A stretch of DNA of 64,000 nt from Lacunisphaera sp. (GCA_029945855.1 JAQSDJ010000324.1:40101-104100), one strand, 5' to 3'; positions 5,024-52,173 are shown, numbered from the stretch's first letter. Numbers and translations: made by a program. Notes: generated from the sequence alone by a model not told the origin.

Positions 5024-5183
5024 GAACCGCGCAGATTGGGAGCCCCGCCGCTGCGCCTCAAGGCAAAAGGTAGGGCTAGTCGTCCCTGACGAGCCGCGGC
5101 TCACCCGGAGGGTTCGCCCTACCGCGGCTGCGGCATCCCGCCGCAGAGTCAGCCAAGCCCACCGGCTGGAAGGCCGCGCCCCC

Positions 5184-23894: not shown

Positions 23895-24887
23895 ATGAAC
23901 AACACATCACAAACCATCCGCGTGGGCCTCTTTTTCCTGCTCGGCCTCGCGCTTGCCTGGATCACGTTCGAGTCGCTCAACGGCGGCCACCTCTTCAAGC
24001 CGCGGGGCTACACCCTCGTGGCCGGCTTCGCCAACCTGAAGGGCCTCAAGACCGGTGACGAGGTGCGCATGGCCGGCGTCAAGGTCGGCGCGGTCCAGCT
24101 CACCCGCCTCGCGCCCAACCGGGTCGAGGCCCTCCTCACCATCGAGCCCGGCGTGCAGATCCCGGCCGACGCGGTCGCCAGCGTCGAGCAGTCCAGCCTG
24201 CTCGGCAGCAATTACCTCGGGGTGACCTTCGGCACCCCCGGCGGGCCGCTCCTCAAGGACGGCGAGGAGATCAAGACCAAGCCGACCGTCGACATGAGTG
24301 AGGTCATCAGCCAGCTCGGCACGCTCGGCTCCAAGCTCGAGCAGGTCATCGGCGAGATCGGCAAGTCCATGGGCACCGGCGGCGAAGGCGGCGGCATCTT
24401 CTCGCGCATCGACAAGCTCGTCACCGACAACGGCCCCAAGCTCACCGAGAGCATCAGCAACCTGCAGGACATCACGGCCAAGATCAAAAACGGCGAGGGC
24501 TCGATGGGCAAACTCATCAACGACCCGAAGCTGCACGACGAGCTGCTCGCCGGCGTGAGCGAGATCAAGCTCGCCGCGGCCGACGCCCGCAGCTTCATGA
24601 GCGACACCAAGGGCATCGTGGCCGACGTCAAGAGCGGCAAGGGCACGCTCGGCGTGCTGCTCTACGACGACGCCACCGCCACCAGCATCAAGGTCAAGGC
24701 CAAGAACCTCCGCGAGCTGTCCGACAAGATCAACGGCGGCCAGGGCACGCTGGGCAAACTGCTCGCCGACGACACCATGTATCGCGACCTGCAGGGCGTG
24801 ATGAAGAAGGCCGACCGCGCCCTCGACGGCATGGGCGATTCCGGCCCGATCACCGCGGTCGGCGTCGTGGCCGGCGCGTTGTTCTGA
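23895..24887 (+). CDS. MCE/MlaD-family protein with long helical extension
   Basis: TM helix, GLKTGDEVRMAGVKVG, SSLLGSNYL, three GxGT/SLGxL helical repeats. Confidence 0.9.
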   Translation: MNNTSQTIRVGLFFLLGLALAWITFESLNGGHLFKPRGYTLVAGFANLKGLKTGDEVRMAGVKVGAVQLTRLAPNRVEALLTIEPGVQIPADAVASVEQSSLLGSNYLGVTFGTPGGPLLKDGEEIKTKPTVDMSEVISQLGTLGSKLEQVIGEIGKSMGTGGEGGGIFSRIDKLVTDNGPKLTESISNLQDITAKIKNGEGSMGKLINDPKLHDELLAGVSEIKLAAADARSFMSDTKGIVADVKSGKGTLGVLLYDDATATSIKVKAKNLRELSDKINGGQGTLGKLLADDTMYRDLQGVMKKADRALDGMGDSGPITAVGVVAGALF

Positions 24888-24902: not shown

Positions 24903-24963
24903 GGTAGGGCGAATCGTCCCGATGAGCCGTCGACTCCGGCTCGTCCGGAAGACTCGCCCTACC
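24903..24963. repeat. REP-like doublet, GTAGGGCGA family (copy 1)
   Basis: GGTAGGGCGAATCGTCCCGATGAGCCG...CGGCTCGTCCGGAAGACTCGCCCTACC; related copies at 50114 and 51514. Confidence 0.85.
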
Positions 24964-49156: not shown

Positions 49157-50084
49157 GCAGCTGAAGCAGTTCACCAAGGTCGTGGCCGACACCGGTGACT
49201 TTGCCAGCATGAAGGAATACGCGCCGCAGGACGCGACGACCAACCCCAGCCTCATCCTCAAGGCCGCCGCGATGCCCGGCTACGCGCACCTGCTGGACCA
49301 GGCGGTCAAGGACGCCGGGGCGACGGCCACCACCGCGCAGGTCATCGACCGCCTGCTGGTCCTCTTCGGCGCCGAGATCCTCCAGATCGTGCCCGGCCGC
49401 GTCTCGACCGAAGTGGACGCGCGCCTGTCGTTCGACCGCGACGGCTCCATCGCCAAGGCCCGCGAGATCATCGGCCTTTACGAGAAAGCCGGCCTGCCGC
49501 GCGAGCGCATCCTCATCAAGCTCGCCGCCACCTGGGAGGGCATCAAGGCCGCCGAGTTGCTCCAGCGGGAAAAGATCAACTGCAACCTGACCCTGCTCTT
49601 TTCGTTCGCCCAGGCGGTCGCCTGCGCCGAGGCCAAGGTGCAGCTCATCTCCCCTTTCGTCGGCCGCATCCTCGACTGGTATAAGAAAAACACGGGCCAG
49701 GACTACGCCCCCGCCGAGGATCCGGGCGTGAAGTCGGTCACCGAGATCTACACCTATTACAAGAAATTCGGCCATGCCACCGAGGTCATGGGCGCGTCCT
49801 TCCGCAACAAGGGCGAGATCACCGAGCTCGCCGGCTGCGACCTGCTCACCATCAGCCCGCCGTTGCTCGGCGAGCTCAAGGCCGGGACCGAGCCGCTCGT
49901 CCGCAAGCTCGATCCGGTCAAGGCGCAGGCCGCGGACTTGCAGCCGGTGACCTTTGACGAAAAAAGCTTCCGCTTCGCGTTGAACGAGGACGCCATGGCC
50001 ACGGAGAAAACCGCCGAGGGTATCCGCGTCTTCGCGGCCGACATCGTGAAGCTCGAGCAGCTCATCCGCCAGAAGCGCGGCTGA
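49134..50084 (+). CDS. tal: Transaldolase
   Basis: [56 protein letters not shown]. Confidence 0.98.
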
Positions 50085-50113: not shown

Positions 50114-50177
50114 GGTGGGGCGAATCCTCCGAATGAGCCGTCCCGCGCTTCAGCTCGTCGAGACGACTCGCCCTACC
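50114..50177. repeat. REP-like doublet, GTAGGGCGA family (copy 2)
   Basis: GGTGGGGCGAATCCTCCGAATGAGCCG...GCTCGTCGAGACGACTCGCCCTACC. Confidence 0.8.
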
Positions 50178-50208
50178 CGCAACAGCCAAAACATTGACCG
50201 ACTCCTGC

Positions 50209-52173
50209 ATGGCCATTCCCTCCCCCGTGAGAACCCCGATTCGCGCCTTCCAGTGGGATCTTGCGCGGCAGGTTGAGCGGCTGGATTTCCTCAAAGCGCT
50301 CCTGCCCCGGTATGCGGCATGGGGTTACGAGGAACTCTACCTGCACCTTGAGGACGCGGTGCACTACCCCAGCCTGCCGGGCATCGGCCGCGACGATGCC
50401 TACACCTATCAGGAATTGGGCGAGCTCGTGCTGGTCGCGGCGCAGAACGGCATCCGCGTCGTGCCGATCGTCAACCTGCTCGGGCACACCCAGTATCTGA
50501 TCAAGCACCCGGAATGGCGCGACCTGAACGAGCTGCGCGACGAGCGCGGCCGGCCATTGGAAACCGGGCAGATCTGTCCGCTGCATCCACGCACCATGGA
50601 AATCGCGGACAAGCTGCTGCGCGACGTGGCGCCGTATTGCACCGCGGGCAAGATCCACGTCGGCCTCGATGAGTCGTTCCACCTGGGAAAATGCCCGCGC
50701 TGTCGCGAAGAGGTCGCCCGGCTTGGGCTGGGCGGGCATTTCGCCGGGCACGTGAACCGGCTGCACGCGCTGTGCACTTCGCTCAACCTGTCGATGGGCC
50801 TATGGGCGGACATGCTGTATTTCACGCCCGAGGCCATTCCCCTGCTGCCGCGCGGAATCACGGCCTACGACTGGTATTACTACCCGTTCAACCGCAAACC
50901 CCGCGTGGAGTTCTTCAATTTCGCCGAGCGCGACCTGCTGCCCGCGCTGCGGCAGCAAGGCATCGCCTATTACGGCTGCCCGATGAACGGCTCGTTCCGC
51001 CATGAGCCGCTGCCGGTGTTCGGCGACCGGCTGGCCAACATCCGCTCCTGGTGGCAACGCTGCACCGCGGTCAAGGCCGAGGGTTTTCTGGTCACTTCTT
51101 GGGAGCCGCAACGCCTCGCGCTGGAGACGACCACGCTCGTGGATGCGGCCGCGGCCAACCTCTGGCGGGAACCGGACGCGGATGACGCCACCGCGATGCT
51201 GGCCCGCGGACTTGAACGGGTTTTCCCCACCAAGAGCCCGCGCGACCTGGCGCGCACGCTGTTGGCGGCGGACGAATGCGCTTTCGCCGGATACGCCCGC
51301 TGGCAGATCAACGACCGCTGGGATGTCCTGGCCGGCAACGAGGGATTAAAAACCTACGAGCATGAGCGGAAGTTTTTCACGCGGCTCAGCCGGACGAAAC
51401 TGCCGGCGCCGCTGGCCGCCAGCGTGGCGTTCCGGCTTTATCTGGCCGAGCGCGATGTCTTCGTACGGCAGGCGGCCCGGGATGTGTTCAAGCTAAGACG
51501 GATCATCACAAAGGGTAGGGCGAACCGTCCCGGTGAGCCGCGGCTCGGCGGGGAAGCCTCGCCCTACCTGAAGCAGATGCAAGCGACCGCAGCCAATTTT
51601 GCCCTCGCTCTAAAGGCGGGGCGCAAGGCGGCGCAGGCCCTGTGGCGGCAGAGCCGTGATCCGCAGGCTCTAGGCCCGAACGAAGCCGTGCTGGACGTCG
51701 ACGAACGCCGGCTGGCCGACTGGCGGGCGTGGCTGAAGCGCGTCGCCCGAAAGCCGGAGCTGGTGTGGCAGGCGACGCCCGTGTGCGGCGCGTGGCAGCT
51801 GCAGTTCATGGTGCACAACTTCGCCCCGGCGGTGCAGAAGGTGATCGTCGAGCAGCAGGACGAAACCGGCGCCTGGCGCGAACTGGCCGGACGCTTCACC
51901 ATCGAGTTCCGGGCCGCCGCGGCCCGGCCGCACAGCAAGTTGAAGCGGGAATTCACCGTGCCGGCGGATTCATCCGACGCGCAATTGCGCATCGCCGTGC
52001 GCGGCGTGGGCCAGGTGGCGGTCACGCACGCCGTCCTGACCAACGGAGTCGAAAGCCGGCGGTGCCGGACTTACGCGCAAAGAAAAATCCTCGGCCGGCG
52101 GGCCCCGGGCCGGGGCTTTCCGTCGTTTGACTGGACGGGAAACACCGGCGCGGTGATATTGCGTTTCGCCTAA
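50209..52173 (+). CDS. GH20-like (hexosaminidase-type TIM barrel) glycoside hydrolase, no signal peptide
   Basis: QWDLAR, YLHLED, PIVNLLGHTQY, IHVGLDESF (DE catalytic pair), LWADM; extra C-terminal domain. Confidence 0.7.
   Translation: MAIPSPVRTPIRAFQWDLARQVERLDFLKALLPRYAAWGYEELYLHLEDAVHYPSLPGIGRDDAYTYQELGELVLVAAQNGIRVVPIVNLLGHTQYLIKHPEWRDLNELRDERGRPLETGQICPLHPRTMEIADKLLRDVAPYCTAGKIHVGLDESFHLGKCPRCREEVARLGLGGHFAGHVNRLHALCTSLNLSMGLWADMLYFTPEAIPLLPRGITAYDWYYYPFNRKPRVEFFNFAERDLLPALRQQGIAYYGCPMNGSFRHEPLPVFGDRLANIRSWWQRCTAVKAEGFLVTSWEPQRLALETTTLVDAAAANLWREPDADDATAMLARGLERVFPTKSPRDLARTLLAADECAFAGYARWQINDRWDVLAGNEGLKTYEHERKFFTRLSRTKLPAPLAASVAFRLYLAERDVFVRQAARDVFKLRRIITKGRANRPGEPRLGGEASPYLKQMQATAANFALALKAGRKAAQALWRQSRDPQALGPNEAVLDVDERRLADWRAWLKRVARKPELVWQATPVCGAWQLQFMVHNFAPAVQKVIVEQQDETGAWRELAGRFTIEFRAAAARPHSKLKREFTVPADSSDAQLRIAVRGVGQVAVTHAVLTNGVESRRCRTYAQRKILGRRAPGRGFPSFDWTGNTGAVILRFA
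51514..51568. repeat. REP-like doublet, GTAGGGCGA family (copy 3), in frame inside the GH20-like CDS
   Basis: GGTAGGGCGAACCGTCCCGGTGAGCCG-CGGCTCGGCGGGGAAGCCTCGCCCTACC, translated as GRANRPGEPRLGGEASPY. Confidence 0.85.

Follow-up and report, generated by a model that had tools for sequence, protein, structure and literature searches.

Repetitive extragenic palindromes (REPs) carrying GTAG or CGTC tags were described inside genes by Di Nocera, De Gregorio & Rocco (2013, BMC Genomics 14:522; PMC3733652), with intragenic copies in many bacteria and most of them in Opitutus terrae, for which Additional file 3 holds 70 intragenic GTAG REP entries, including HrpA, a WD40 protein and helicases. In the same study, Oter_0701, a 'glycoside hydrolase, family 20' of 652 aa, carries a GTAG-19 REP at residues 457-465 (AGGAPAL). 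A related case is analysed here at positions 51514-51568 of a stretch of 64,000 nucleotides (the window, meaning the whole stretch analysed), where a 55-nt pair of inverted GTAG-tagged REPs lies in frame within a gene for a glycoside hydrolase family 20 (GH20)-like protein. The window belongs to contig C324 of an Opitutaceae genome (G000; 5.0 Mb, 65.9% G+C, 330 contigs), the placement being given by named orthologs (Lacunisphaera, Opitutus sp. GAS368). Throughout, P, L and G label protein orthologs, DNA loci and genomes, respectively, and the query is the GH20-like gene of the window. An earlier note on this DNA had held that palindromes inserted in coding regions are rarely reported outside Rickettsia, which is contradicted by the many bacteria listed in 2013.

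The O. terrae GTAG REPs come from the same bacterial family and are read in frame, as singles or dimers, as 7-30 extra residues in known proteins, with host genes overlapping those of the studied genome (HrpA, WD40 protein, helicases and glycoside hydrolases). Judged by residue number and protein length, the REP of Oter_0701 and the element studied here stand at nearly the same place in two GH20 proteins of similar size, and the ortholog in genome G045 carries the same AGGAPAL peptide in its GH20 loop. The peptides differ, being GRANPPDEP.../VGRVVPDEP... here and VAGVADPG, VGPALAAG and GTGVPPV for GTAG-17, GTAG-18 and GTAG-19 of O. terrae, and the studied family is not among the O. terrae families listed, the genome also being a different one. 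While the in-frame habit of REPs has been known for Opitutaceae since 2013, it is new here that the segment is shown to be absent across about 150 orthologs, that its site is placed in a structure model and that arms and flanks contrast in their conservation.

Rickettsia palindromic elements (RPEs; Ogata et al. 2000), as reported in PMC3733652, are found in frame in many functional genes as tolerated surface segments. The likeness lies in this behaviour only, in-frame insertion in functional genes, and the element is therefore not classed as an RPE. The host of RPEs is an obligate intracellular alphaproteobacterium, whereas the present one has a 5-Mb Opitutaceae genome, and RPE-1 is longer, about 100-150 bp. 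The REPINs (paired REPs) mobilised by REP-associated tyrosine transposases (RAYTs) (Bertels & Rainey 2011, PMC3116915; E. coli TnpA-REP) are similar in having two inverted REPs and a spacer, dispersed in high copy number, with near-identical master copies and with GTAG-flanked Y1 transposase genes in the same genome; however, classical REPINs are extragenic, while about 20% of the doublets are intragenic here, and no cognate RAYT was found. Miniature inverted-repeat transposable elements are likewise small and non-coding, with inverted ends and many copies, but the present element lacks a target-site duplication and its ends are GTAG-tagged hairpins not derived from an insertion sequence.

The element and its host gene

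The element reads GGTAGGGCGAACCGTCCCGGTGAGCCG followed by CGGCTCGGCGGGGAAGCCTCGCCCTACC, two GTAG-tagged hairpins in inverted orientation with abutting arms, having G+GTAG at both ends and an imperfect hairpin next to the tag. It is a GTAG-type REP doublet, a REPIN-like miniature mobile element, and its alignment with the copies at 24903-24963 and 50114-50177, whose ends are invariant (GGT.GGGCGAA and CTCGCCCTACC), confirms the homology that the earlier note had proposed. Position 51514 is a first codon position and the final C opens the next Leu codon, the element encoding GRANRPGEPRLGGEASPY, a Gly/Pro/Arg-rich loop of 18 residues. Regarding the RNA, its fold reaches -39.8 kcal/mol (z = -3.9), equalled by none of 200 shuffles, and a search of Rfam around the GH20 gene gave nothing relevant, the sole match being a chance s2m (E 0.37).

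The host open reading frame (ORF) runs from 50194 to 52173 on the + strand, with the ATG at 50209 as its likely start, and encodes a protein with an N-terminal (beta/alpha)8 catalytic domain, a C-terminal helical domain and a terminal beta-sandwich. Residues 17-208 match PF00728 (Glyco_hydro_20) with 44.4 bits against a cut-off of 22.3 (E 1.9e-11), more than 1200 homologs are found at E < 1e-10, and the D154-E155 pair in HVGLDESFH is invariant across 87 sequences. The frame stays open for 200 codons past the element, the G+C content at third codon positions (GC3) is 0.80 before and 0.86 after it, and the domains C-terminal to it are conserved and confidently modelled; the element is therefore inside an open GH20-like frame, as had been claimed. 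The gene is syntenic with its relatives, having a transaldolase upstream and an S9 peptidase downstream.

An AlphaFold2 model built from the 87-sequence alignment (mean predicted local distance difference test (pLDDT) score 85.8, predicted template modelling score 0.87) shows a helix at residues 400-435, coil at 436-449 and a helix at 450-479, the insert being residues 436-453 in the numbering from the ATG, with pLDDT values of 68-73 within it and 93-98 around it. The best Foldseek matches are the streptococcal enzymes GcnA (2epn) and GH20C (5a6b), with E ~1e-16, both of which have a helical domain C-terminal to the catalytic barrel. The insert is thus predicted to cap a helical hairpin that belongs to the C-terminal helical domain and not to the catalytic one, and according to the model it would be distant from the active site.

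Besides the in-frame doublet, the window holds further copies of the family, its arm pattern matching 8 times against 0.53 expected, a number reached in none of 100 shuffles. The copies at 50114 and 24903 were said to be intergenic, and so they are, since they lie outside genes, after the stop codons at 50084 and 24887, the former between the transaldolase stop and the GH20 start. In the whole genome the exact 17-mer pattern has 151 matches, against none for the reversed control, and a seed-and-score scan for REP units counted 189 half-sites on many contigs, arranged as 73 inverted doublets and 43 unpaired units. The doublet lengths have modes at 64-65 and 92-94 nt, the studied copy having 55 nt, and the outer G/C is invariant in 43/43 oriented doublets. 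Subfamilies are separated by paired changes of the inner stem (TCC/GGA vs CCG/CGG), and the studied copy belongs to a minor subfamily of its own genome (arms ...GAACCGTCC / ...GAGGC.TCC) that is dominant in G054 and G027. Arms of the GAACC type occur in five oriented doublets of the genome, three of them intragenic, which fits with in-frame copies being hard to delete. Within the bacterial family, the REP family was found in only 15 of 61 genomes (14/60 genera).

Several observations were made on the repeats themselves. Six doublets (C66:24679, C74:15533, C114:17001, C140:5389, C207:1060 and C209:33) have common extended flanks, GACGG.GTCGGCAG ... CC.TTGAGCCCCCG, and therefore belong to a larger repeated unit or stem from a recent segmental duplication. 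A second abundant GTAG doublet family, GTAGGGCGGGATCGCTGATCCCGCC...GGCGGGATCAGCGATCCCGCCCTAC, is present on contigs C33, C80, C99, C117, C121, C148, C149 and C170. An extra hairpin (TCCGCC.T.GCCA.GGCTATGGCGGA) is nested inside one arm at C46:104, C104:23055, C104:29520 and C133:13914, resembling the RPASFAKATKPKE-coding hairpin of the GH20 loop in other lineages (L010). The 'Type B' hairpin was rejected as a family here, because a strict pattern gave one copy only in the genome. Upstream of the gene, locus L012 (positions 395-480; contig of P0022, a 75% identical ortholog) also has an intergenic doublet between transaldolase and GH20, whose arms are near-identical to those of window 50114-50177 and whose spacer is unrelated, and in the closest relatives (L008) just 27 nt separate both genes.

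Distribution among orthologs and age of the insertion

Of 120 homologs aligned with MAFFT (68-91% identical), about 110 are without the segment and about 10 have it in a recognisable form. P0002 (91%) and P0003 (88%) have the 18-residue segment at the identical position, with the same 55-nt element at the same nucleotide (L008, L009), while P0006 and P0022 bear a long form, P0039 a form with 8 extra residues, P0058 and P0083 half an element, and P0042 and P0064/72 decayed forms. As for the DNA, L011 and L012 have a 93-nt form, its spacer agreeing with that of the 92-94-nt doublets in the studied genome, L014 keeps the left REP only, and L007 (P0004, 84%) has no element and is 33 nt shorter. 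Among genus representatives, 34 have the gene and 27 are readable at the loop, with segments anchored by tblastn; none of the 27 carries the segment, in genomes with and without the REP family alike. Their anchored loop segment has 35-54 residues in 25 of the 27, compared to 48 in the query, the others having 87 (G045) and 17 (G047). Genomes rich in the family, such as G055 (225 pattern matches), G002, G027 and G030, also have the GH20 gene without insert. REP-free genomes with the same segment, which would have spoken against an insertion, were not seen among the readable orthologs, nor is the protein truncated at the element. These comparisons support a REP insertion in the GH20-like gene of an Opitutaceae lineage.

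A gap of approximately 18 residues had been expected in the orthologs; the gap exists, but its size is 9-14 residues (27-42 nt) for a 55-nt element, because about seven ancestral loop residues (ARPEAGLH-type) are missing at the element site. This small net change could also come from rewriting of the loop codons in place towards the REP, by gene conversion onto an older remnant instead of a fresh transposition, as would the near-consensus arms in old lineages, a faint likeness of the uninserted allele (CCCGTCCGGAGGCC...CTTCACC) to parts of the element, and a similar 'replacement' pattern in RlmN, as seen in G000 vs G029. However, the likeness between loop and REP is weak, by our count about 62% over 24 nt in a gene of 66% G+C, the length does increase, and neither donor nor conversion tract is shown, making such a rewriting quite improbable.

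The 330-contig assembly, with many REP copies at contig ends, raises the suspicion of an artefact, namely a chimeric assembly at the repeat, a fusion of neighbouring genes by a stop-free repeat, or a pseudogene. Nevertheless, the junctions are identical in three independent assemblies (L008, L009 and the window), the uninserted orthologs are single ORFs of 631-660 aa, colinear on both sides, and GC3 is high on either side of a site crossed by one confident fold, so that an artefact is hardly credible.

Regarding the history of the gene, a tree made with the loop masked nests P0004/P0005 in the carrier clade (supports 0.93-0.98). P0004 shares 98-100% amino acid identity with the query over the N-terminal two thirds, but only 60-75% over the remainder, which starts at the loop. 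This marks it as a mosaic (recombinant) GH20 gene with the REP site lying in its breakpoint region, and recombination has therefore exchanged inserted and uninserted alleles. For the 45 residues past the insert, P0002, P0003 and P0006 rank first to third in identity, the insertion being therefore common by descent. P0003 differs from the query in arms (49/55, 89%) as much as in flanks (156/180, 87%), its element having three non-synonymous and two synonymous changes with broken pairs left uncompensated, and in this near clade the element drifts like its flanks. In addition, P0042 holds a 55-nt remnant at the same site, about 71% identical, and P0064 a more decayed one; same-length decayed copies at the same site in distant orthologs indicate that the insertion is probably old.

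The more distant carriers P0022 and P0039 show a different pattern. P0022 agrees with the query at 53/55 arm positions, compared to 134/180 in the flanks and 33/60 at third codon positions, and P0039 at 27/28 positions of the right arm, compared to 119/180 and 25/60. Their flanking third positions (42-55%) are near saturation, as chance identity at such GC3 is around 0.4 by our estimate, and their flanks are no nearer to the query than those of non-carriers. This contrast may come from a renewed insertion at the same nucleotide, from gene conversion that homogenises the copies, or from a constraint acting on the arms.

Recurrent site-directed insertion at the same nucleotide (query clade, P0022, P0039 and P0058), making the loop a true integration hot spot, would agree with these near-consensus arms beside saturated flanks, with the scattering of carriers on the gene tree, with spacers that differ (2 nt, 39 nt, or an extra 24 nt) and with the further family copies present on the contigs of P0022 and P0039. 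Meanwhile, neither a target-site duplication nor, apart from the invariant G...C, a target motif is seen in the flanks of 43 oriented doublets, the gene is uninserted in the family-rich genomes named above, the same-length decayed copies point to one old event, and within-gene recombination is demonstrated by the P0004 mosaic; we regard a hot spot as unlikely. It is also conceivable, though rather doubtful, that in genomes with an active family the in-gene copy is kept at or returned to the family consensus, not being a simply decaying passenger.

Mobilisation and fate of the insert

The genome has six Y1_Tnp (PF01797) genes, three of which show the classical REPtron layout, each being bordered by a GTAG REP family of its own, distinct from the studied one. 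Mobilisation of the studied family by a RAYT would be analogous to what is described in the REP/RAYT literature (PMC3116915, PMC8266576). The explanation preferred here is that a REP doublet inserted in the GH20-like gene of an Opitutaceae lineage and would have survived by landing in phase, without stop codons, in a permissive and length-variable loop. The insert would then be transcribed and translated with the gene as an 18-residue loop, most likely as a passenger that is neutral or nearly so and has no function of its own. This explanation as a whole, a GTAG REP doublet inserted in frame as a tolerated loop and carried as a likely neutral passenger, is considered very probable. The suggestion of the earlier note, a REP insertion tolerated as a new protein loop, holds up in that most orthologs are without the segment, the gene is intact and the loop appears in the AlphaFold2 model.

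Some points weigh against it. None of the six Y1_Tnp genes is flanked by the studied family in the 330-contig assembly, although a cognate RAYT may be missing from it because the assembly is fragmented. The oriented doublets offer neither target motif nor duplication as traces of insertion, and with a net gain of 27-42 nt a target deletion or replacement must be assumed. Moreover, old insertion followed by neutral drift does not explain the 96% arm identity beside saturated flanks in P0022 and P0039, and the actual translation of the insert is something that we infer.

Other host genes and permissive loops

A REP was counted as intragenic when entirely inside a long frame with GC3 >= 0.8 on both sides. 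By this measure 16 of the 73 doublets and two single units lie inside long high-GC3 frames; the doublet at C185:11780 was rejected, its element being upstream of the likely true start. The in-frame set then comprises 15 doublets and two singles in 15 conserved genes (Table 1), the intragenic share of 15/73 doublets (~20%) being unusually high, while the other 58 are outside such frames, as in a mostly extragenic family. A scan of the coding sequences, proposed in the earlier note, thus gives at least 17 in-frame copies in the genome. For AlaRS the best PDB alignment stops short of the REP site, and the intragenic call rests on frame and GC3 only. RlmN, compared to PDB 6fz6, has a clean 22-residue gap exactly at VGRVVPDEPKSRVAHPEDSPYP, and the Pfam envelopes of DTW, FMN_dh and Amidase run across their inserts. 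At the 5' end of the REPs two of the three phases are used (GRA..., VGR...), the third being unused because it gives TAG, and at the 3' end all three are used (...SPY, ...ALP, ...RPT).

Table 1. Features of the window and genome related to the REP family (window positions unless a contig is named)
Feature	Position	Strand	Basis or remark
In-frame REP doublet (REPIN-like), 55 nt	51514-51568	+	Sequence, family alignment, fold, translation
Left REP unit: G + GTAG tag + small hairpin GGCGAACCG-TCC-CGGTGAGCC	51514-51540	+	Sequence; architecture common to 189 half-sites
Right REP unit, inverted; reverse complement GGTAGGGCGAGGCTTCCCCGCCGAGCCG	51541-51568	-	Minus-strand arm match at 51552-51568
GH20-like glycoside hydrolase, 654 aa from ATG	50209-52173	+	PF00728, homologs, AlphaFold2, Foldseek
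Intergenic copy, main ATCCTCC/GTCG subfamily	50114-50177	+	Between transaldolase and GH20 genes
Intergenic copy	24903-24963	+	16 nt past a stop codon (stop at 24887)
Fourth family copy within the window	5069-5123	+
RAYT-like REPtron (L005), REP GTAGGGGCGCGCCTTGTGCGCGCCC	C151:16800-17600
RAYT-like REPtron (L001), REP GTAGGGGCGTCCCTTGTGGACGCCC	C151:10500-10560
RAYT-like REPtron (L003), REP GTAGGTCGGGGTTTATCCCCGAC	C125:23880-24640
Host gene RlmN (L046)	C74:32338-33414		PDB match
Host gene TatD			PDB match
Host gene acyl-CoA carboxyltransferase			PDB match
Host gene AlaRS (single REP)			PDB match
Host gene DTW-domain protein			Pfam
Host gene FMN-dependent dehydrogenase			Pfam
Host gene Amidase			Pfam
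Host gene DUF255 thioredoxin-domain protein			Pfam
Host gene sugar kinase-like protein			Pfam
Host gene HrpB			Pfam
Host gene HrpA			Our reading of the sequence
Host gene Mfd (two doublets)			Our reading of the sequence
Host gene WD40 protein			Our reading of the sequence
Host gene large glycoside hydrolase			Our reading of the sequence
Host gene GH20 (studied here)			Pfam

The HrpA-like gene (C133:9872-14089) has several repeat-derived segments, with a REP doublet at aa 212-232, a composite doublet with nested hairpin near the C-terminus (GRANPSAAAKAMADRPDEPEGPARRDGSPHP) and two copies of another segment, GVGAVA(L/P)NG...AVEGNRPYQ.

The GH20 loop is also occupied in other lineages: a hairpin encoding RPASFAKATKPKE is found in eight homologs (DNA in L010), segments of the GGTRPPDGFSP / SGGARPPGG type in five, KAGGAPALP in G045 and NSQLSTLNSQL in G003. 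Similarly, in 30 genomes of the bacterial family at least six unrelated palindromes stand at the same RlmN loop, which is bounded by the radical-SAM cysteine motif and by LRN(I/L)V (loci of the other genomes, L047-L075). The studied REP family is present there in G000 and G029, a VAGVADPG dimer of the O. terrae GTAG-17 type in G027, TGTCACGTAATACGTGACA-type hairpins in G024, G028 (twice) and G052, other hairpins in G019, G026 and G043, and an A-rich heptamer-like tract in G058, the shortest loops having 22 residues (G017, G040). We read the repeated colonisation of the GH20 and RlmN loops as survivorship in tolerant loops rather than targeting, because no target motif or duplication is seen and REP-rich genomes have an uninserted GH20.

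It could be argued instead that the element has its own function, as an mRNA hairpin acting on decay or on the speed of translation, a DNA site (for gyrase, IHF or a RAYT) or an adaptive loop, and is kept by selection, considering its strong fold, the arms conserved in P0022 and P0039 despite saturated flanking synonymous sites, and its retention in frame in several lineages. Such a function is very unlikely, as most orthologs do without the element, its decay in P0003, P0006, P0042 and P0064 is uncompensated, the same REP family sits in 15 unrelated genes at unrelated places, and other lineages have unrelated palindromes in the same loop, with no Rfam family matching.

For annotation, peptides of the GRANPPDEP/VGRVVPDEP type in Opitutaceae proteins are better taken as repeat-derived loops than as motifs. 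Arms and flanks differ in how well they are conserved, and this mismatch offers a small lead, open to testing, on the homogenisation of REP populations. If in-gene copies were indeed held at the family consensus, this would mean re-insertion at the exact site or concerted evolution of a translated segment (by gene conversion, possibly RAYT-mediated), a mobile-element population would continuously determine one part of a protein's sequence, and REP turnover could be measured in a natural system, the in-gene copies of orthologs. The case extends the 2013 observation in O. terrae to another REP family and lineage, as a well-controlled example in which selfish DNA has turned into protein sequence, backed by the comparison of about 150 orthologs, by a confident structure model and by 15 host genes of a single genome, and across the bacterial family unrelated palindromes repeatedly occupy the same permissive loops, those of the GH20 helical hairpin and of RlmN.

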